The position numbers and the translations under genes were made by a program. Shown piece by piece: positions 21,418 through 41,689 of a stretch of 42,873 bases of DNA. Origin of the DNA: a virus (taxonomy: Duplodnaviria; Heunggongvirae; Uroviricota; Caudoviricetes); the IMG/VR virus record IMGVR_UViG_2897369580_000001; one strand, written 5' to 3'. Below the pieces are notes generated by a model that was given only the letters and a program-made list of their open reading frames with translations, did no database searches and was not told the origin of the DNA. Each line of letters begins with the position of its first letter. Position 1 is the stretch's first letter.

Positions 21418-22089
21418 TTATACGCAAACGTCGTCTAAATGGTTCTGATAATGATGCAAAGTTGCAAGAAGTGCCACTTCATCAAGTGCTCTCACCGCCT
21501 CTTTCATTCCTACCCAGTGCAGGGAGTATGTTTCGCACCAGGTGGAACGAGAAACCGACAGCATTCCTGCTAGGGTAGATCCGGCCATCTCCTTAAAATC
21601 CTCGCGTTTATTTGCTGCTGCGACCGCCTGCACGGACAACCACACCAACGAAAGCAGGCGCTTAACTACTTTTCTCTGAGTTGACGCGGGGATGTTTCCT
21701 TTATAGCGACTCCAGACAGCCTCACAAATAGCTGTTTGGTGTTTGAATGCCAGGTTACCACCGTAGCAATAACGCAACCACGCTTGCTGACTTGCATCCA
21801 GCGAGTTCACAGAACGCCGCCAGGATGAATCAGCAAATTCAAAATCACTCATCGGCGGCGCGGGGCGACGTCTGCTGAAACTTTCCAGAGCGTAAACTGG
21901 CGTAACCAGAGCATCAACGGTCCGGTCCTCCAGCTGCACACGGTGAATATGTTTGCGTGGGTATGCGTTTTTGTCTGCCGGTGGGTGCTCACACAATGCT
22001 TCCAGTTGCCCCTTAGAACCACCAGACAAATCCCGCAATGCAGCGCGCAGTTTTATGCGGGTATATTCCAATAAATACTCGTTACTCAT
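21418..22089 (-). CDS. Late-gene antitermination protein Q (putative)
   Basis: 223 aa; immediately upstream of late promoter-terminator region and lysis cassette; downstream of nin-like genes. Confidence 0.5.
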   Translation of the reverse strand: MSNEYLLEYTRIKLRAALRDLSGGSKGQLEALCEHPPADKNAYPRKHIHRVQLEDRTVDALVTPVYALESFSRRRPAPPMSDFEFADSSWRRSVNSLDASQQAWLRYCYGGNLAFKHQTAICEAVWSRYKGNIPASTQRKVVKRLLSLVWLSVQAVAAANKREDFKEMAGSTLAGMLSVSRSTWCETYSLHWVGMKEAVRALDEVALLATLHHYQNHLDDVCV

Positions 22090-22382
22090 CAGATAAACTC
22101 CTCATCGCGCCAGATAGCCAGTGTTCTGAAAACTCCCTCAGCGTGCATCAACAACAATGAGTCGTGCTCGTAATCCGTTTTTGTACGTCCGTCGATGGCA
22201 TCGTGACACGCACTGCAGGCGATAGCGCCCTGCATATCGTGAGGTTTGATGGCTGTGCCGCACGTTCCGGCGAGACGATAATGAGCCAGTACGCTGGTTT
22301 CAGGATTGTGATTGCACACACCGGGGATACGCACAGTACAAGCGCGACTGCGTGCAGCTTTTCTCAGGTCGATTTTTTTCAT
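22089..22382 (-). CDS. DUF1364 family protein (YbcO-like, Cys-rich putative nuclease)
   Basis: 97 aa; ...LRKAARSRACTVRIPGVCNHNPETSVLAHYRL...ACSACHD... resembles DLP12 YbcO. Confidence 0.6.
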   Translation of the reverse strand: MKKIDLRKAARSRACTVRIPGVCNHNPETSVLAHYRLAGTCGTAIKPHDMQGAIACSACHDAIDGRTKTDYEHDSLLLMHAEGVFRTLAIWRDEEFI

Positions 22383-22975
22383 GATGTGTAATCCAGCAGC
22401 TGCGCGGCGGCATTTTCAGCGGCCTCCTGAGAGGCAAATGTGCGGAACAAAATATAATTCCACAGCACATCTAAAACGGCTGAATACAGTTGACCGAACT
22501 CAAGATCGTCCATCGCTGCAAACGAGATTGAACGAGGTACGCGCATCAAACTGCCGTCTGGCATCTGATGAACGTCATAAAACCCAGCTTCCATAATCGC
22601 CCATGCGCGAAACGCCTCGAACGACTTCACCGCACTGATACTCCCCGCGCGCTTTTCCGACTCATCGAGAAGATACTGATCAGCCAGCTCTGCCATGACA
22701 TCACCGTGTCCACCGTAATACGCCAGTAACTTAACGTAGCCGTGAACCAGTTCGCGCTCCGCAGGAGAAATAGCCCCTCCGGACGGATGCCAGTAATCAA
22801 AGCCCAGGTTGAGAAGTGAGAAAAATTTACGATGAAACGCGGGATTACGCGCCTGTTTGAAATCTGCATACACAACAGCACCTGGTTTGACTCGTTCAGT
22901 CAACCAGCGTTGCGTGTCTGGTGTCGCGGGTATTAGCGAACCGCCGGATACCCTGATAAATGAATGCTGCGCCAT
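22379..22975 (-). CDS. DUF1367 family protein (YbcN-like), nin-region protein
   Basis: 198 aa; position upstream of the YbcO-like gene as in DLP12; family call from memory. Confidence 0.45.
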   Translation of the reverse strand: MAQHSFIRVSGGSLIPATPDTQRWLTERVKPGAVVYADFKQARNPAFHRKFFSLLNLGFDYWHPSGGAISPAERELVHGYVKLLAYYGGHGDVMAELADQYLLDESEKRAGSISAVKSFEAFRAWAIMEAGFYDVHQMPDGSLMRVPRSISFAAMDDLEFGQLYSAVLDVLWNYILFRTFASQEAAENAAAQLLDYTS

Positions 22976-25398: not shown

Positions 25399-26004
25399 AT
25401 GCCATCGGATGACGATTTTAACAGCCGTTTCAAACAGGAAGTAGCACGCAGACTGAAGGATTCCCTCAACCTACACCGTCAGTTAGCAGAAGAGGTTGAG
25501 CCGGAGGACGATGAAACTCCGGTTCAGTCTCCTGACGAAGCTTCACCTCAGCCAAAGGTTTCGCACGCCCCCAAAAAAACGGCTGTCCGTATTCGCGGAA
25601 TAGCCAGAAAAAGAGCTGCCGAAGCTCGCAAAATGGCTGTAGCTGCGTCTAGCAAAAGAATTCCAACTGCTACACCCTCTCAACAAGTCACCCGTACTGA
25701 GAGTAAAATCTTGACCGAGTTCACATCTGTGAAACAGGTGAATTCACTTGATACCGAGCATGAGCGCAAACAACTCAACAACAAAGATTTTGAAGCAGAA
25801 ATCGCTCTAAAAAAACGATACGGGAAATGGTTCCTGATTATCCTTGCTTTCCAACTTCTGATAATGAATGGTGTATTTATTGCCGACGGCGCAGGTAAGC
25901 TGGAATTTGAGGATTTAACACTACAGTTGTACATGGGCGGTACTTTGACAGAGGTATTCGGCCTCGTGCTGGTCGTGACAAAATACCTTTTTAAACGCAA
26001 GTAA
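25399..26004 (+). CDS. Membrane protein with charged N-terminal region and two C-terminal TM helices (putative effector)
   Basis: 201 aa; starts 9 bp after peptidase stop; C-terminal hydrophobic helices; last 72 bp duplicated at 29355..29426. Confidence 0.65.
   Translation: MPSDDDFNSRFKQEVARRLKDSLNLHRQLAEEVEPEDDETPVQSPDEASPQPKVSHAPKKTAVRIRGIARKRAAEARKMAVAASSKRIPTATPSQQVTRTESKILTEFTSVKQVNSLDTEHERKQLNNKDFEAEIALKKRYGKWFLIILAFQLLIMNGVFIADGAGKLEFEDLTLQLYMGGTLTEVFGLVLVVTKYLFKRK
25933..26004 (+). repeat. Direct repeat copy 1 (3' end of membrane-protein gene)
   Basis: 72 bp, about 90% identical to 29355..29426; encodes MGGTLTEVFGLVLVVTKYLFKRK*. Confidence 0.9.
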
Positions 26005-26028
26005 CTCTCTCGGTCCAACAGTCTTTCG

Positions 26029-26050
26029 AAGGCCCTGATCAAAGGGCCTT
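26029..26050 (+). terminator. Terminator-like hairpin after membrane-protein gene
   Basis: AAGGCCCT-gatcaa-AGGGCCTT. Confidence 0.45.
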
Positions 26051-26248
26051 GATAAATTAGCAGTGCGTTGAAAACAGATAGTTATTCCCATCAGTTCCAA
26101 CGTAATACACATCAAAAAAATCACCATTCTTTTGCTCTAACGTCAACACCTACCCTTAAAAAAATAATTCTCCAAGAATGAGAAAGTTATTGTGTGTATT
26201 AGATAAGATATGAGCTGACACATCTATGGCGTGGAGCCAAATTTAATA

Positions 26249-26282
26249 TGACAGTCCGCTCTGTGCCATAAGCGGACTGTCA
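26249..26282. terminator. Perfect 12-bp inverted repeat hairpin between convergent genes
   Basis: TGACAGTCCGCT-ctgtgccata-AGCGGACTGTCA. Confidence 0.5.
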
Positions 26283-26466
26283 ATAAACAGATTCACTTGT
26301 AAATCTTGAAGCTATACATATTTACTTTCAATGATAAATAAAAGAACTATCCAAAAATCACTGAGAGCATATTTTAACTAACCCTCCGCTACTATTAACA
26401 TAAATTTCACCCAACCATAATTAAATTGATACATATAGCAACTTACCTTGATACGAATCATCTGGG

Positions 26467-27165
26467 TTATATTTTTCCATATTTTTTTCCGTCAAATCGA
26501 ATCATGCCAGGATCAAGAAAATTAATTAAATCGATTAACGCGTGCTGTATTCTGATTAGCCTTTCTTTATAAATTCCGATATCTCTTGTCATATTTATCA
26601 CTTCATTGTTTAAATCTAAAAAAAATGGCTCATTGATAAAGCAATTTTCCTTTGTGAAACTGCCGTAACCTATGCAATCAAATCCAGTATCTGTTGATAT
26701 CAGCATCTTTTCTGCAATAGCTCTCTGCTCTCCTATGAAAAACATAAAATACTGACCAAAGACGTCTGTTTGGATTAATGAGTTAATATTGTTCTGTAAT
26801 CTAATAAACTCCCTCATTTTTTTATTTTTTTCTAGGCTAAGGTATTGAATGTCTATGCGGGCAGCTTCTGTCCATGCAAAAAACTGGGAAAAAAGAAAAA
26901 CAGTATTGTTGATAACATAATCTTGTTGGCGCTTATTCCCATTATGATAAAACTCTTCAATGAACCCCAATTCTAATATATTATAAATACGGCTTTGTAA
27001 GTCTGAAGCTGAGCGAATTAACGGTTCAATATAGTACTGATGTTTTCTCCTTACATCCAGTGATTCATTGAGCTTGTTTATTCTATTCTGATTATAAGTA
27101 GATATAGCAATAGAGATTATAGCTATTGCACCACTAATAAAGCTTGAAATTAATGCCGTACCCAT
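26467..27165 (-). CDS. AT-rich membrane-anchored protein of unknown function (defense/exclusion candidate)
   Basis: 232 aa; N-terminal TM helix ALISSFISGAIAIISIAISTY; Asn/Ile/Lys-rich; sits in visibly AT-rich cassette. Confidence 0.6.
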   Translation of the reverse strand: MGTALISSFISGAIAIISIAISTYNQNRINKLNESLDVRRKHQYYIEPLIRSASDLQSRIYNILELGFIEEFYHNGNKRQQDYVINNTVFLFSQFFAWTEAARIDIQYLSLEKNKKMREFIRLQNNINSLIQTDVFGQYFMFFIGEQRAIAEKMLISTDTGFDCIGYGSFTKENCFINEPFFLDLNNEVINMTRDIGIYKERLIRIQHALIDLINFLDPGMIRFDGKKYGKI

Positions 27166-28352
27166 CTAAAAGTCCTTTGATTCTTGCTTGGTTAACAAAA
27201 TGACATAATTTTATTTAATGCCATAACAACTTAACAATATATCATAATATGATTATTATGGTGTAGCTTGTCGCATCTACGCTCCATTACAAACAGATGT
27301 AAGATATAACCTATATGTTTTAGCCAGCAAATTCGAAAGCATTCAAAGTAGTCTCATCGAACTCTCGAAACCCTATGTCTTCGGGTATAAAATATTTAAA
27401 TCCATTTGCATAATATCGACTCATGTTTATTATATTCTCCCCATTCACCATTAAGATTTGACATTATTTTCAACAATCGGTTATTGCAAGATTGAAATAT
27501 ATTTTTACTTGACACAATATTCCATGTAGCCCAGCGATTCGACTTACCCCCAACTATACGGACAATCTAAATTAAATCGATGATTTTTTGATACATTCTC
27601 CTCTCTCCATTACTTTATGTTTTTGTTCCCCAAAAATACCTTGCTCTCTAAAAAATAATTGTTCTTTAAGTTCAAAATCGAGATCTACATGAGCGTTAGA
27701 TACAAAGCTAATATGTTGAAATGTCTTTCCCCCCCCATAACGGCATTGTTATCTAAACTATGTTACACAAATATAATATTACCCTTTCAACGTAATCCAA
27801 GAATAAGATTAATGCCATTATATATATCATAAATATGATATTTTGTATATTTTTATCATTTAGCCTTGATTGTACTAGGTGTACTCTCAACGAAGTAGGG
27901 AAAGTCTGTTCCTCGCTCACAGCTGCCCTTCAGTAAGCGAAAAAATGCCTACTCGGTGCCATATACAGCCATTGTTATTAACAGCAGGGAATAATTCAAA
28001 ACTGAAATTAAATATCTACCTTTTACAGTAGAAATAGTTCCTCCAGGACACTATCCATTGCCGGGCACAATCACTCGGGGTATAACGATATAAAATATGT
28101 TCATGATAGTGCAGGTTCGTATATTAAGTTCAGCAGCGAAAACATGCCTTACAGGTTTCCGGTTTTGGGAGCGTCGTTACAGGATCCTGCGCATACCGTT
28201 CCCATCTGTTGAATTAAAGGTTTCACAGCCTTTGCCGATATCACCTTTTACCTTACCTGTGATGCGTTCAGTGCTCAGCGTTGTTTACTGTAGCTCTCGG
28301 GACTGATTACAGACCGCGTCTTAAAAACCAATCCTTACTCTAAAGGGAATTC

Positions 28353-35835: not shown

Positions 35836-35953
35836 TTCAGTTCAAATTTCCAGGCCAGCCGCTGCTGGCATGCAACTTTCCCCTAACACAAAAACACCTT
35901 TACACAGTGAATATTTTTTTGCCCCTCACTACAAATTATTTTTTAAAAACACA

Positions 35954-35982
35954 TTGACCATTACAAATACAAATTGTAAAGT
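35954..35982 (+). promoter_or_regulatory. Early-left promoter candidate with operator-like palindrome
   Basis: -35 TTGACC (35954), 17-nt spacer holding TTACAAAT-ACA-AATTGTAA, -10 TAAAGT (35977). Confidence 0.4.
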
Positions 35983-36318
35983 CACTTTCATCAACAACGC
36001 TTACCCAGCGGCAGTTGTTCAGAAACACGTTCTGACAGCCGGAAAGACGGCACCAAATTTTGCGCGTCGGCGCCAACACGGTGACAGAGGGAAAGACTTC
36101 ACCGGCATATGGCACATGTGTCGAAGCGGTCTGGATGGAAGCGGAGCCTTAACGCGTTGTCTCCATAGCAGGTAGCCGGAATGTGCAAGCCACAGCCAGG
36201 TATGAGCGATTGATTCACCATCAAGGCGATACGGTGTGACCACCAGGGAAGAGTCCTGGCTACAACACGAGAGCGCACTTCATCGACTCAACTTTGAGCT
36301 TTGTCGTTAAATTTTGAA

Positions 36319-36404
36319 ATGGCGGAGTGCGCTCCCGGTTGTGGTGAACAGGTGTTTAACGGGAACTCCCTGCCCGTTACCCGGTTCGATTCCGGGCGCC
36401 CATC
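36319..36404 (+). other. tRNA-like element (T-arm signature; unverified)
   Basis: CCCGG-TTCGATT-CCGGG (36380..36396) is a canonical T-stem/loop; acceptor pairing imperfect. Confidence 0.2.
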
Positions 36405-36519
36405 ATCAATTTGCTGTGTTTAGTCTTTGCCCAGTCCGCACGATGGGCCATTTTTTCACACAGCCAGGTTTTATCGCTGTGCCTGAGTCCCCAACAGGAG
36501 AGGCCAAACCCGCAGCGTG

Positions 36520-36620
36520 ACACCAGGGAAAGACCGGAGGAAGTACCACGCCTGACCAGCGTTGACCATGAGCCTGACCAGCTCAAAACAGGAAAGACCA
36601 GCCCGGGCCTGACCAGCCCT
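36520..36620. repeat. Short direct-repeat array (CCTGACCAGC x3; GGAAAGACC-like x2)
   Basis: GACC cores at 36532, 36554, 36564, 36576, 36596, 36611; more copies downstream. Confidence 0.5.
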
Positions 36621-36845
36621 GTACGGTCGTAATGGAAACATAACGACGCCGGAAACGTAACCGGCACCCTTTAGATAGCAAAAGACCCGCACAAGGCGGG
36701 CCAGTTACCCCGAACGGCGACCAAACCATTCGGATTTATCACAAGTGACCAAACTTGTGATGAGGAAAGACCAACGACACTGACGCTATGGAAGCTGATC
36801 AATATTCGCTGATCGGCTCTGAGTATACATTACCAAGGAGTCGCT

Positions 36846-37166
36846 ATGGAAGCGCGCACCATCCCAGTAACACTCTTTATTCATTATGCAACTTCAACTT
36901 TCAGCCACGAAAAGCTGCTTGTTGCGACTGTTGATATGTCAAAAAATTTTCCAGACAGGTACATCCTTCTGGAAAGCCGCGAAATTGAAATTACCGTTAA
37001 CCAGCCCGAGCCAATCGACATCATCGGTTTACAGGTCGAGCAACTGCGTGAACAAAAACAGAAAACAGTCGCCGACGCCCAACAGCGTATTGCTGCTATC
37101 GATGACAAAATCCAGCAGTTACTTTGCATCGAATACACGCCAGATACCGATGAGCTCCCCTACTAA
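36846..37166 (+). CDS. Hypothetical early-left protein
   Basis: 106 aa; AAGGAG RBS 7 nt upstream; coiled-coil-like C-terminus. Confidence 0.5.
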   Translation: MEARTIPVTLFIHYATSTFSHEKLLVATVDMSKNFPDRYILLESREIEITVNQPEPIDIIGLQVEQLREQKQKTVADAQQRIAAIDDKIQQLLCIEYTPDTDELPY

Positions 37167-37196: not shown

Positions 37197-39413
37197 ATGA
37201 CCATTTTTAACGGCTTGTTAGAAGCGAAAAAAGGCGCGCTCAAAAACGGCGCGATCCCGGCGCTGGCCATCGCCATCGCCGCCCCTAACAAAAAAGTTGC
37301 CGAGAACATCATCATCGGCAAATTGTGGGAAGCCTACCCTGACCACGGCGACAACTATTTCAAACCTAAAATCTGGGAAGATGCCCCGGGCCAACCGCGC
37401 CCAGGCGTCGGTGAGTTTGATGAGACGTTTGCCACAGAACACAGTTTTGATGGCGAAAAATGGGTAGTTAACACTCCTGTTGATTCAGATTGCAGTTCAG
37501 CAGATATCTCACAGGTTAGCGACCTGATGAAACTGCCGGCTCGTGAACGATTCGCCGCCGTTCTGCTGTTCAGCCACGACGCCAACGAAGTCGACAGTGA
37601 ATTGCTTGTGCAGACGCGTGAATACCTGGAGATGCTCGATAACAGTGATACTGACAGTGAGGATGAGGTTGACGCGTTTAACCGCATCGTTCTTGATGCC
37701 ATGGTGGCGTGTAAGCCCATCGAGTACATGCATATTGCTGGATTGAATAATCTGGTACATGCAATTTTGGCAAGTTGCGATACCCAGGAACAAAACCCGA
37801 CCAGTTGGACTATCTCCAAATTTATAAAAAAATGGGTAGAGAATCCCGGTAAACGAGATGAAATGCTGCCGGAGGTAAAACCAGAAACAGCATCCGCACG
37901 TCCTTACAAACAGACTCACGCCACTCTGGATCGTGAAATTGCCTGCGCCCTGTTACCTGTTGCCCCGGAAAAAATCACCCCCAGCATCCTGAAAGCGGCA
38001 GACGAAATAATCAGTCAGGACAGGGAAGATTTTAAACGCTGGTCAATGGCCTTGCGCACAACGGATCAGATCCTTGCCTATGACCGCGCATCAGTATTCG
38101 GTGTTATTCAGAGCGCCCCCGCAAAAGACACGTACCACTTCCCACAATCCCTGCGCAGTCACATCGACAACTGGCTGCAAGCTAACGGGCAGCGTGATGC
38201 AAATGCTGTTGAAGAGAAGCCAAAGGAAGCAGCACCCAAGGATGATGTAAAAGTCACCAACCACGGCGGCGGACGATTCTCAATTGATGGGATGATGTCA
38301 GAAACACCCTCAAATCAGGGCGAAAAAAGCGAAGCTGCAAATGCTGGAGAACGTAGTTTGCAGCAGTTGCGTGAGCAGTTTGTCACGCCTCGCCATGTGT
38401 ATGACGTACCTGAAAATAACGCCGTATCACAGAGGGAACCTGCAGCTATTACCCTGGCAGAAGAGACTCCTCCACAAGAACAACTTAGCGAGCAGGTAAA
38501 GGATCTGGTGCAGAACGTTGACGCGCTGGTTGAGCGGATCCATGCCGAAGAGCACAAGCGGCAGAATGCAATCTCAGCTATCGAAACGGAGTTAAAGGAC
38601 TCAGATGACACGGATAACCTGGCATTGTGGAAGAACGTATTCAAAACCGATGAGCGCTTCACCAGTGCTTTCTCTCAGAATGGCGGCGGCACATCCATCA
38701 ACGGCACTTATATAGCGATGAAAGCGACTCGCGAATTTGGGCCATTTGGTATTGGCTGGGGGGTAGAGGTGCTGGAGGAGCGCTTTGATAAAGGCGCACC
38801 AATAGTTCGCAAAAAACAGGTTGGTGAAAAAATAGAATGGGATCTGATTCAAGACGGTGTTGGCGGGTACCTATGTGAAATGCACCACACCATGAAAGTG
38901 AGAGTCTGGTACATATTGAATGGGGTACGCGGTGAGTCCGAGGCTTACGGATGCACACCTTATATCTACGACACTAAATACGGACCAACAAGCGACGGCG
39001 AAGCACCGAAGAAATCCTGGACGGATGCTGTTAAGAAAGCGCTATCCCCTCTCGGATTCAGCGCCGATATTTTCATGGGCCTGTACGACAATCCGGAATA
39101 CCGCCAGAGGAATAAAGCTGAGTTTGATATCAAGAATGCCAGCGAGAATGCGGAAGATGCTACCCGTCTGCGTAAGGAACTGGATGAGAAGCTTATCAAC
39201 GTTGCCAATACGCTGGCCGCCGCGGTAACCGCCAACGAAGTAAACAAGGTATTTGGCCTCATCGCCCGCGAAGTGGATGTACACAGGAAAGCAGCGGAAA
39301 CCAAAGGCGATAAAGAATATTCATCGTATCTGGGATCACGTCTGCGCCGTATCACCGACATTAAAACTGAACGCCTCGCCGCCCTTACCGCTGCACAGGA
39401 GCAAACAGCATGA
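37197..39413 (+). CDS. Large recombination protein with C-terminal Rad52-like annealase domain
   Basis: 738 aa; ...KKSWTDAVKKALSPLGFSADIFMGLYD... resembles the Rad52/Sak signature; conserved RBS motif. Confidence 0.55.
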   Translation: MTIFNGLLEAKKGALKNGAIPALAIAIAAPNKKVAENIIIGKLWEAYPDHGDNYFKPKIWEDAPGQPRPGVGEFDETFATEHSFDGEKWVVNTPVDSDCSSADISQVSDLMKLPARERFAAVLLFSHDANEVDSELLVQTREYLEMLDNSDTDSEDEVDAFNRIVLDAMVACKPIEYMHIAGLNNLVHAILASCDTQEQNPTSWTISKFIKKWVENPGKRDEMLPEVKPETASARPYKQTHATLDREIACALLPVAPEKITPSILKAADEIISQDREDFKRWSMALRTTDQILAYDRASVFGVIQSAPAKDTYHFPQSLRSHIDNWLQANGQRDANAVEEKPKEAAPKDDVKVTNHGGGRFSIDGMMSETPSNQGEKSEAANAGERSLQQLREQFVTPRHVYDVPENNAVSQREPAAITLAEETPPQEQLSEQVKDLVQNVDALVERIHAEEHKRQNAISAIETELKDSDDTDNLALWKNVFKTDERFTSAFSQNGGGTSINGTYIAMKATREFGPFGIGWGVEVLEERFDKGAPIVRKKQVGEKIEWDLIQDGVGGYLCEMHHTMKVRVWYILNGVRGESEAYGCTPYIYDTKYGPTSDGEAPKKSWTDAVKKALSPLGFSADIFMGLYDNPEYRQRNKAEFDIKNASENAEDATRLRKELDEKLINVANTLAAAVTANEVNKVFGLIAREVDVHRKAAETKGDKEYSSYLGSRLRRITDIKTERLAALTAAQEQTA

Positions 39414-39979
39414 GCACTGCTATCGCTATTGCAAAAGAATATGCCAGTCTGATTGACCTGTTAGAAACCGCCGATGAACTGACGCCAGAGATGATCGCCG
39501 ACACGCTTGAAGGCATGGAAGGAGAACTGGGAGACAAACTGGACGCCATGATGGTCATCTGCCGTAATTTACAGGGCAATGCCAATACCTGCGCTGAAGA
39601 AATGTCTCGCCTGGCAACCCGTAAGACGTCCTTTGAAGGCAAGGAAAAAGCAATTCGAAAGCATATGCTCACCTGCCTGCAAGCTGCTGGCCTGGATAAA
39701 CTGAAAACCGCAAAAAACACATTTACTGATGCACAGGGGGCTATCCGGGTAATTATCGATAGCAAAGATAAGATCCCGGATGAGTATGAGGGCGTGTCAC
39801 TTGTTGATGTAGAAACGGTTATTACACCAAACAAGCGAGCCATTAAAGAAGTGATTGAATCTGCGGAGGCGGTTGCCGCCGAAATACTGGCGCGTGGAGA
39901 AACACCACCAGCCGAGTTATTAAACCCGGTACCAGGCGCACATCTGGAACGCGGCGAACGGTCACTGAGGATACGCTAA
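39410..39979 (+). CDS. Gp157-like protein (Sipho_Gp157 family candidate)
   Basis: 189 aa overlapping stop of upstream gene; family call from memory. Confidence 0.4.
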   Translation: MSTAIAIAKEYASLIDLLETADELTPEMIADTLEGMEGELGDKLDAMMVICRNLQGNANTCAEEMSRLATRKTSFEGKEKAIRKHMLTCLQAAGLDKLKTAKNTFTDAQGAIRVIIDSKDKIPDEYEGVSLVDVETVITPNKRAIKEVIESAEAVAAEILARGETPPAELLNPVPGAHLERGERSLRIR

Positions 39980-40045
39980 TGCTTAAACTCACATTAAAGC
40001 GTGGTGACGCGGTTCTGAAGTGGTCAACAAAAACTGGCCACCGAG

Positions 40046-41193
<1,148 letters not shown>

Positions 41194-41464
41194 TATGGCA
41201 CCTGTGTTGTTCTGAGGTGAGCATATCACCTCTGTTCAGGTGGCCAAATTCAGTAAACCACTTCAGTTCACCTGGTACTTGCCGATGGTACCAATGGCAT
41301 TATTGAAGCACGGAGCCGCTGCGAACTTGGGCTACACCTGCCAGAAAACATTAAGGTCACTCGGGAGAAATCGGCATTCACCCCACAAGAACTGATTACG
41401 CCTAATCAGAAATAAAAACTCACCATCGCTAGCATTGCGATTCACCAGACACCGGAGGATCACA

Positions 41465-41689
41465 ATGCTGCGATGGCAACCGGGAGCAACTCTGCTCTCC
41501 GCATTTGATATCAAAATTGGTCGACTGTCGGCCAGCGTCAGGAAACAGACTTTGACCGAGTCTGATATTGCCCGTGCCTGCCAGAAGGCAGATGACGCAA
41601 TAAGCTACATAATGAGGAAAGACCATGAAAAGCGATCACGACATAATCACCAGAGAAGAAATGGTCGAGCTGACGGGAAGCCCACTTAA
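41465..41689 (+). CDS. Hypothetical small protein (uncertain; overlaps excisionase-like gene)
   Basis: ATG at 41465; overlaps 41625..41888 in another frame. Confidence 0.2.
   Translation: MLRWQPGATLLSAFDIKIGRLSASVRKQTLTESDIARACQKADDAISYIMRKDHEKRSRHNHQRRNGRADGKPT

Follow-up and report, generated by a model that had tools for sequence, protein, structure and literature searches.

The locus described here is the early-left arm of an Escherichia coli prophage, which is inserted beside tRNA-Leu/Cys/Gly near pgsA-uvrC. It was analyzed in IMG/VR virus record IMGVR_UViG_2897369580_000001 (Caudoviricetes), the full 42,873 nucleotides of which are referred to below as the window. An open reading frame (ORF) of 738 amino acids (aa) with an ATG start occupies 37197..39413 (+), as had been read in an initial annotation made from the sequence, and is followed by an ORF of 189 aa at 39410..39979 (+), the start of which overlaps the stop of the longer ORF as ATGA. 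The longer ORF very probably encodes a natural chimera, in which the N-terminal region of a RecE-type exonuclease is joined to an annealase of the Rad52/Sak type, and the shorter one encodes its Gp157-family partner.

The full-length protein was modelled using AlphaFold, with a mean predicted local distance difference test score (pLDDT) of 77. In this model, residues 1-335 form three domains (D1-D3), which are followed by a linker and by a long helix that runs into the Rad52 core. The two genes and the parts of the longer product are as follows.

37197..39413 (+): fusion gene, 738 aa, RecE-type N-terminal region with predicted Rad52/Sak-type annealase (WP_000151806.1, UniProt A0A0C5F0W5)
37197..37475 (+): D1, residues 1-93, small alpha/beta domain (model pLDDT 80-93)
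37515..37871 (+): D2, residues 107-225, entirely helical and acidic (net charge about -13; structure model, charge count)
37896..38201 (+): D3, residues 234-335, helical, with direct sequence homology to RecE (exonuclease VIII about 262-370; NCBIfam, PHROGs, BLASTP, tblastn)
38211..38483 (+): linker, residues 339-429, about 90 residues, acidic and predicted to be disordered (pLDDT 31-44; poorly conserved, many gaps)
38490..38639 (+): long helix into the annealase, residues 432-481 (structure model)
38646..39092 (+): predicted Rad52-fold annealase core, residues 484-632 (beta-hairpin, helix, long curved beta-sheet, groove helix)
39009..39089 (+): signature motif KKSWTDAVKKALSPLGFSADIFMGLYD, residues 605-631, the most conserved stretch of the family
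39093..39410 (+): three-helix C-terminal tail, residues 633-738, conserved, partly present in stand-alone relatives too; a candidate partner-binding element
39410..39979 (+): Sipho_Gp157-family gene, 189 aa, phrog_253, the invariant partner of the fusion

The C-terminal domain was compared with its relatives in an exhaustive search using residues 460-738 as the query, which returned 2663 clusters at 50% identity. The relatives are mostly stand-alone proteins of 240-300 aa, and fusions of 650-815 aa make up about 26 of the best 150 clusters, so that the description of the protein as an unusually large fusion in the initial annotation is borne out. A frameshift or an assembly artefact was considered as the source of the long ORF and was ruled out, as the long ORF is found in all 80 related viral loci. 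In the PHROGs database the protein matches phrog_2489 ('exonuclease') over its full length, the RecE-like families phrog_607 and phrog_2082 over residues ~232-333, and phrog_7838 and phrog_7792, which are families of stand-alone proteins of ~240 aa, over residues ~470-722. The Pfam family Rad52_Rad22 (PF04098) is matched by 18 of the 89 aligned stand-alone relatives, with a best E value of 3e-6.

A model of the C-terminal domain, calculated using AlphaFold2 with this 89-member alignment, reached a mean pLDDT of 94.9. Its topology consists of a beta-hairpin, a helix, a long curved sheet and a further helix, followed by three long helices, and thus contains the hairpin, bridging helix, curved beta-sheet and groove-lining helix of the Rad52 core fold. 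A Foldseek search of the PDB gave eight matches below E=1e-3, all of them to human RAD52's N-terminal domain (E values of 6e-7 to 3e-6, probability 1.0, about 19% identity over about 170 columns), and the next PDB match had an E value of 0.056; after human RAD52, the structural matches are Mgm101 and Sak of phage 80alpha. In the BFVD database, the 15 significant matches are all small viral proteins, and those that bear a name are called Rad52/59/22, RAD52-like recombinase or DNA repair protein, with Erf-type proteins ranking lower. Comparison of the family profile with human RAD52 using hhalign gave a probability of 78.5% and an E value of 1.7e-5 over 129 columns (residues 484-640 against RAD52 47-176), and places K613 and K614 on the DNA-binding residues K152 and R153 of RAD52.

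The initial annotation had reported a Rad52/Sak-like signature in the C-terminal third, which corresponds to residues 605-631. In an alignment of 29 diverse fusions, K605, K606, T609, D610, K614, L616, S617, G620, F621, D624 and G628 are invariant and K613 is conserved in at least 90%. The patterns KKSx[TS]DAx[KST]K and [AS]D[IV][FYH][LME]Gx[FYW][DE][DN], drawn from the signature stretch, served to find related loci. Furthermore, the domain is 42% identical over 200 residues (E=3e-44) to gp19 of Pseudomonas phage F116 (gene 19, 251 aa), which a passage of Ricaurte et al. (PMC5743808) gives as the 'Sak' reference protein, following Lopes et al. (2010). In P. putida, F116 gp19, under the name 'Rec6', is reported to have catalysed recombineering with oligonucleotides at a frequency of about 1e-4 per viable cell (PMC5743808). 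Agreement of the modelled fold, the profile, the motif and an experimentally tested relative thus supports the assignment of residues ~484-632, together with the helical tail, as a putative annealase of the Rad52/Sak type.

The N-terminal region differs from this domain in both charge and conservation. Residues 1-460 are mildly acidic (isoelectric point 4.9, net charge -27), whereas residues 471-738 are near neutral (net charge -2). Among the 29 diverse fusions, 106 of the 268 C-terminal columns are conserved at 75% or more, compared with 26 of the 470 N-terminal columns; these are mainly A, P, G, W and L and include no invariant polar residue, which suggests a scaffold or interaction role rather than catalysis. 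The initial annotation had described the ~450 N-terminal residues as acidic and of unknown function, and had made no link to RecE; the acidity is confirmed, and the region is not an orphan, being homologous to the N-terminal region of RecE.

This homology is most direct in D3. The NCBIfam model for exonuclease VIII (NF007259) matches residues 233-336 with an E value of 1.9e-12 and a score of 46 bits, which does not reach its equivalog cut-off of 1269, and BLASTP aligns the same region with residues 263-332 of RecE from the Rac prophage. A tblastn search of sequenced phages with residues 1-459 extended the similarity to residues 45-331 in the RecE/exonuclease VIII genes of Tritos, mEp460 and PPompW, with shorter matches to the RecE genes of Gifsy-1/2, SPN3UB, HK225 and Klebsiella phages; phage ZF40 and Stenotrophomonas phage BUCT708 were matched by whole fusions. 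Rac RecE itself carries the Pfam domain Exonuc_VIII (PF06630) at residues 2-178 and the PD-(D/E)XK nuclease domain (DUF3799, PF12684) at residues 615-850. In the 738-aa protein Pfam detected neither PF06630 nor PD-(D/E)XK/DUF3799, the latter in the same test that finds it in Rac RecE. Between D1 and the Exonuc_VIII domain of Rac RecE, hhalign gave a weak collinear alignment (residues 50-98 against RecE 46-96, probability 25%, E=7.5e-4). D1 probably corresponds to the newer Pfam family PF27430, a tag carried by the homologues; its placement in the N-terminal region is based on P0121 of the fusion family, in which the C-terminus is the same but the tag is missing.

Two members of the fusion family, P0121 and P0122, join these observations, since both have a strong Exonuc_VIII domain and no nuclease, and end in the same annealase. 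Residues 1-497 of P0122 are 49% identical to residues 1-518 of Rac RecE (BLASTP, E=6e-156), and its residues 484-775 are 65% identical to residues 450-738 of the protein studied here (BLASTP). These breakpoints place the recombination junction with RecE-type N-termini at about residue 450. From its homology to the RecE N-terminus, the 738-aa protein can be regarded as a RecE that carries an annealase in place of its nuclease, and the clean swap in P0122 indicates that the whole N-terminal region of RecE is a portable module that may precede either a nuclease or an annealase. In reviews, the N-terminal region of RecE is described as having no known function, as not being needed for basic recombination and as an enhancer of linear-linear recombination (PMC11611040, with reference to Fu et al. 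2012).

An additional feature was seen within this region. The homologues P0006, P0012, P0013, P0014 and P0016 carry an insertion of ~100 residues at columns ~235-345 of the family alignment, the start of which (LSAHDRWIYVLLFD...) resembles the start of D2 (LPARERFAAVLLFS...) when compared by eye only. This suggests that D2 is a repeatable module, of which some homologues appear, again by eye, to have a second copy.

The partner gene had been compared to the Gp157 family in the initial annotation, and this resemblance proved to be strong: the 189-aa product matches Sipho_Gp157 (PF05565) with an E value of 9e-29 and 101 bits (cut-off 28.6) and phrog_253 with an E value of 1e-46. A Gp157 homologue starts at or overlaps the stop of the fusion gene in 78 of 80 related viral contigs, and the other two contigs end just past the fusion gene, so that the pair is present at all 78 assessable loci. 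It is also found in Pectobacterium phage ZF40, in which gp07 is 36% identical over its full length to the fusion and gp06 is 49% identical to the Gp157 protein, and a fusion with an Exonuc_VIII-type N-terminus is paired with Gp157 in the same way. The coupling extends to other annealases. In Pseudomonas phage PseuP_222, a stand-alone annealase of 248 aa is followed by an overlapping Gp157 gene, and Gp157 genes also adjoin RecT-like (HK140), Sak4-like (phinm2, LP-101) and Erf-like annealases. The occurrence of Gp157 beside annealases, to which the initial annotation had referred in general terms, has likewise been noted for Firmicutes phages (PMC8093625). That Gp157 accompanies four different families of annealases suggests a target common to all of them, either a substrate or a host factor.

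Gp157 proteins are labelled 'Mu Gam-like end protection' by PHROGs and by several depositors, a homology that was neither verified nor refuted here; HK140 gp40, which belongs to the same Gp157 family, has been cited as an example of 'MuGam' (PMC12315714). The Gp157 protein did not match the Pfam family of Mu Gam (PF07352) even at E<=10, and Mu Gam and Gp157 are assigned to different PHROGs (491 and 253, respectively). Furthermore, a prophage next to icd (locus L168, 149-3260) encodes, in this order, a lambda-type Gam (PF06064), a fusion of an Exonuc_VIII N-terminus with the Rad52 domain, and Gp157. As a lambda-type Gam lies directly upstream of the fusion-Gp157 pair in this case, Gp157 is not simply a substitute for Gam.

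The pair is widespread under uninformative or misleading names. Of 5426 complete E. coli genomes, 463 (about 8.5%) contain DNA that matches the locus with at least 90% identity; in at least 448 of the complete genomes RefSeq calls both genes, as 'hypothetical protein' and 'siphovirus Gp157 family protein', and the fusion is found on more than 1000 Salmonella contigs. Every public name of the exact protein is either 'hypothetical' or 'uncharacterized'. For the family, some NCBI names read 'exonuclease family protein', and PHROGs 2489 and 7838 are labelled 'exonuclease'. The same label is carried by stand-alone Rad52/Sak annealases of Vibrio and Pseudomonas phages (for example PMG1 and many Vibrio phages), and was apparently inherited, because these PHROG families also contain fusions with the RecE N-terminus. 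Shortened copies of the fusion occur in public data.

The fold, homology, domain swap and gene linkage established in this analysis are the basis of the reading that is preferred here, namely that the 738-aa protein is a natural chimera of a RecE-type N-terminus and a Rad52/Sak annealase that acts as set out below with Gp157; we consider this reading, including the mechanism and the role of the partner, to be very probable. The Rad52 core would oligomerise, bind single-stranded DNA (ssDNA) in a basic groove lined by K605/K606 and the helix of K613/K614, and anneal complementary strands. Annealing would provide the prophage, in its lytic growth, with a means of recombination and repair that does not need RecA. 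The RecE-type N-terminal region would be a non-enzymatic, portable accessory that is carried on a PD-(D/E)XK nuclease or on an annealase, depending on the phage; its probable task is to bring the recombination enzyme to DNA ends or a host factor, or to hold it there. The translationally coupled Gp157 would be an obligatory accessory, the action of which is presumably not tied to one annealase fold and is probably directed at DNA ends or host nucleases.

The ssDNA substrate would be supplied by host nucleases or replication forks, as in other phage Rec modules without a nuclease, because the operon encodes no exonuclease. Neither an exonuclease nor a second annealase was found in the operon or in the other early regions. 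Chi sites, enrichment of which would be a clue to reliance on RecBCD, gave no signal (2 sites, compared with 1.2 expected). Rec modules without a nuclease are common, accounting for 84 of 246 lambdoid phages (PMC12315714), and reliance on host nucleases or on ssDNA at replication forks is plausible. Apart from the fusion and its partner, just two recombination-related genes were found in the prophage, both in the nin region:

22379-22975 (-): NinB/Orf-type recombination mediator (phrog_319, E=3e-68)
22089-22382 (-): small ORF resembling an HNH endonuclease (phrog_131, E=3e-41)

A more far-reaching proposal is that the ~500 N-terminal residues of RecE are an autonomous portable module, and that the fusion and Gp157 together form a self-sufficient system without an exonuclease, which captures or holds DNA ends or recruits a host nuclease. 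In such a system, the N-terminal module would be displayed in many copies on the Rad52-type oligomer and would act together with Gp157. This proposal is possible and is put forward tentatively.

Several observations weigh against the chimeric annealase as preferred here. Neither the full protein nor residues 460-738 matched a Pfam family at E<0.1, and sequence searches of the PDB with the protein and with the 89-member profile found nothing, for which reason structure prediction was needed; the annealase assignment therefore depends on a predicted structure, on the comparison of profiles and on transitive homology. In the hhalign alignment, the positions of RAD52 R55 and R156 are not basic and are taken by F492 and S617, respectively. 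Fold searches with the N-terminal domains returned no informative structural match. BLASTP of Gp157 against Mu Gam was non-significant (E=1.4), and hhalign comparison of 20-65 Gp157 with 54 Gam sequences gave a probability below 1% with shallow profiles (effective number of sequences about 2.6); the corresponding alignment is collinear, with the motifs KxKTA, NKxAI and VxG, and is non-significant at this depth. Finally, an insertion sequence (IS) is located just downstream of the pair, and excision of the prophage may be defective.

Among the other explanations, the one that survives best is that the Rad52-like domain has been co-opted for the start or restart of phage replication, as a decoy or trigger in defence conflicts aimed at phage recombinases, or for the sequestration of ssDNA, with the RecE-type region and Gp157 serving the same role. 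Phage annealases are reported targets of several defence systems and satellites (PMC11846896), phage replication in S. aureus depends on Sak and Sak4 (PMC5499656), and the lack of a cognate exonuclease among the genes found leaves room for a non-canonical role. However, the DNA-groove motif is invariant, the stand-alone relative with 42% identity is active in recombineering and the gene sits at the usual place of the Rec module in lambdoid phages. Moreover, replication-coupled recombination is a normal task of annealases, so that this explanation overlaps with the preferred one; as a separate account it is improbable.

A further reading, in which the prophage is cryptic, the gene is in decay and no longer functions, and the fusion arose by accident during prophage erosion or assembly, is very unlikely. 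The IS that interrupts the operon just downstream and the truncated copies in public data could be read in this way, but the intact fusion is present at 90% identity or more in at least 448 complete E. coli genomes and occurs on the Salmonella contigs counted above, recurs among the best clusters of the homologue search, is carried by the viable phages ZF40 and BUCT708, and shows the strong C-terminal conservation described for the 29 diverse members.

It is scarcely credible that the protein is a RecE-like exonuclease that resects double-stranded DNA ends in the 5'->3' direction, as the PHROGs and NCBI names state, since, despite the full-length match to phrog_2489, the central homology to exonuclease VIII and the recE position in a Rac-like layout, the nuclease domain that is clear in Rac RecE is missing and is replaced by a region with the Rad52 fold, the NF007259 score falls far below its cut-off, the N-terminal region has no invariant catalytic-type residues, Zheng et al. 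(2025, Genome Research; PMC12315714) independently describe 'RecE-2' proteins, related to RecE, that have no nuclease domain and the roles of which are not known, and the PHROG label is best explained as a carry-over from the shared N-terminus.

The two genes are part of a rightward operon with the order 106-aa ORF, fusion, Gp157, ~60-aa ORF, ~65-aa ORF, xis and int, which is collinear with that of ZF40. The neighbouring features in the window are as follows.

36846..37166 (+): 106-aa ORF, phrog_2479, the first gene of the same operon, 30 nucleotides 5' of the fusion gene
39979..40015 (+): start (12 codons) of a conserved ORF of ~60 aa, overlapping Gp157 at TAATG and cut by the IS
40016..41265 (-): IS3-family element, ISEc52-like, 1250 bp, with inverted ends TGAAGTGG/CCACTTCA and a 4-bp target duplication, GTTC

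The 106-aa ORF is probably not a core part of the system, because the upstream gene differs among related loci. The IS, which is inserted in the ~60-aa ORF after codon 12, lies outside the recombination module and parts it from xis and int; ISEc52 lies within the matched region in some E. coli genomes and is absent from others. The ~60-aa ORF after Gp157 is kept in SK1144, in locus L006 and in ZF40 (gp05). Both small ORFs 3' of Gp157, the first with the sequence MLKL(T/S)LKRGDAVH... and the second (~65 aa, phrog_27062) with ...W(Q/K)PG..LL..FDIKIGRLSASVRK..., are conserved from E. coli to Pectobacterium phage ZF40. They are located at 39979-40015 and 41435-41689 in the window, and in related loci at 9180-9362 (L001), 6711-7140 (L002) and 7999-8428 (L006). 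Neither shows similarity to RalR or RcbA of Rac.

Two further regions of the window were noted in passing. Between the cI-like repressor and the operon lies ~1 kb without a credible ORF (35836-36845), in which the model of the small RNA RprA is matched over its full length at 36348-36458 (+) with a sub-threshold score (37.4 bits, gathering score 70, E=0.022); the match terminates at a terminator-like hairpin with a T-run (36434-36448), and a cluster of terminator-like hairpins is present on the minus strand at 36594-36702. At 26001-28000, the GC content dips sharply to 0.33, compared with about 0.45-0.55 elsewhere, around an ORF of 232 aa (26467-27165, phrog_5606) that is possibly a moron or cargo gene.

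The fusion is carried by about 8.5% of the complete E. coli genomes and by a very large number of Salmonella genomes, and these results correct a widespread gap and error in annotation, which PHROGs 2489 and 7838 have spread to the stand-alone annealases of Pseudomonas and Vibrio phages. The clean exchange of nuclease and annealase identifies the N-terminal region of RecE as a separable module useful to both enzymes, and its function, which is relevant to direct cloning with RecET, can be tested in two natural contexts. If the portable-module proposal is true, the fusion would offer a direct experimental handle on the RecE N-terminus and possibly a new tool for recombineering. The strict coupling of Gp157, which is also seen with RecT, Erf and Sak4 annealases, marks it as a general accessory of recombination.

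In comparison with known systems, the C-terminal domain is closest to the Sak family (PF04098; F116 gp19 and Sak of lactococcal phage ul36), with which it shares the Rad52 core and the motif KKS-TDA-KK-LS-LGF. It is 39% identical to the 'RAD52-like annealing protein' of PseuP_222, and in both cases an overlapping Gp157 gene comes next. However, Sak-family proteins stand alone at 240-300 aa, whereas the 738-aa protein adds ~470 RecE-type N-terminal residues, and it lies below the Pfam threshold of PF04098, unlike 18 of the 89 stand-alone relatives. The accessory set of F116 also differs from the Gp157 pairing: after the gene 19 annealase (locus L003, 3983-8535) come a protein of 338 aa that weakly matches DUF1351 and RecE-like PHROGs, then an annotated exonuclease, SSB and RdgC. 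Identity to human RAD52, yeast Mgm101 and 80alpha Sak is only about 17-20%, and RAD52 carries a C-terminal region that binds RPA and RAD51, whereas the present protein carries the N-terminal RecE-type region and the helical tail.

Rac RecE occupies the same position in a Rac-like early-left operon (repressor ... recE-like gene, partner, small ORFs, xis, int). Relative to Rac RecE/RecT, the N-terminal homology is direct only over residues 233-336 and extends to RecE 1-518 in the sister protein P0122; the nuclease (RecE 615-850) is replaced by the annealase, and the partner is Gp157 rather than RecT. The locus is likewise an early-left recombination module when compared with lambda Gam-Bet-Exo and with P22 Erf and Abc, and the order Gam, fusion, Gp157 next to icd parallels lambda gam-bet-exo, with Gp157 in the position of exo. 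In contrast to two-component phage recombinases, there is no exonuclease gene, and Gp157 holds the third position.

No description of an annealase fused to a RecE N-terminus was found in the literature; the Sak/Rad52 annealase family is already known, while the fused architecture, the strict coupling to Gp157 and the misannotation appear to be undescribed. The 'RecE-2' proteins are probably the family of RecE-N-terminus::Rad52 fusions. In Table 1 of PMC12315714, the ZF40 module is listed as anti-RecBCD ('MuGam') only, with neither an annealase nor a nuclease. However, as ZF40 gp07 belongs to the fusion family, this module very probably encodes an annealase. If 'RecE-2' and the fusion family are the same, a hole in the latest survey of lambdoid Rec modules is filled, and the counts of 'recombinase-less' prophages are too high.

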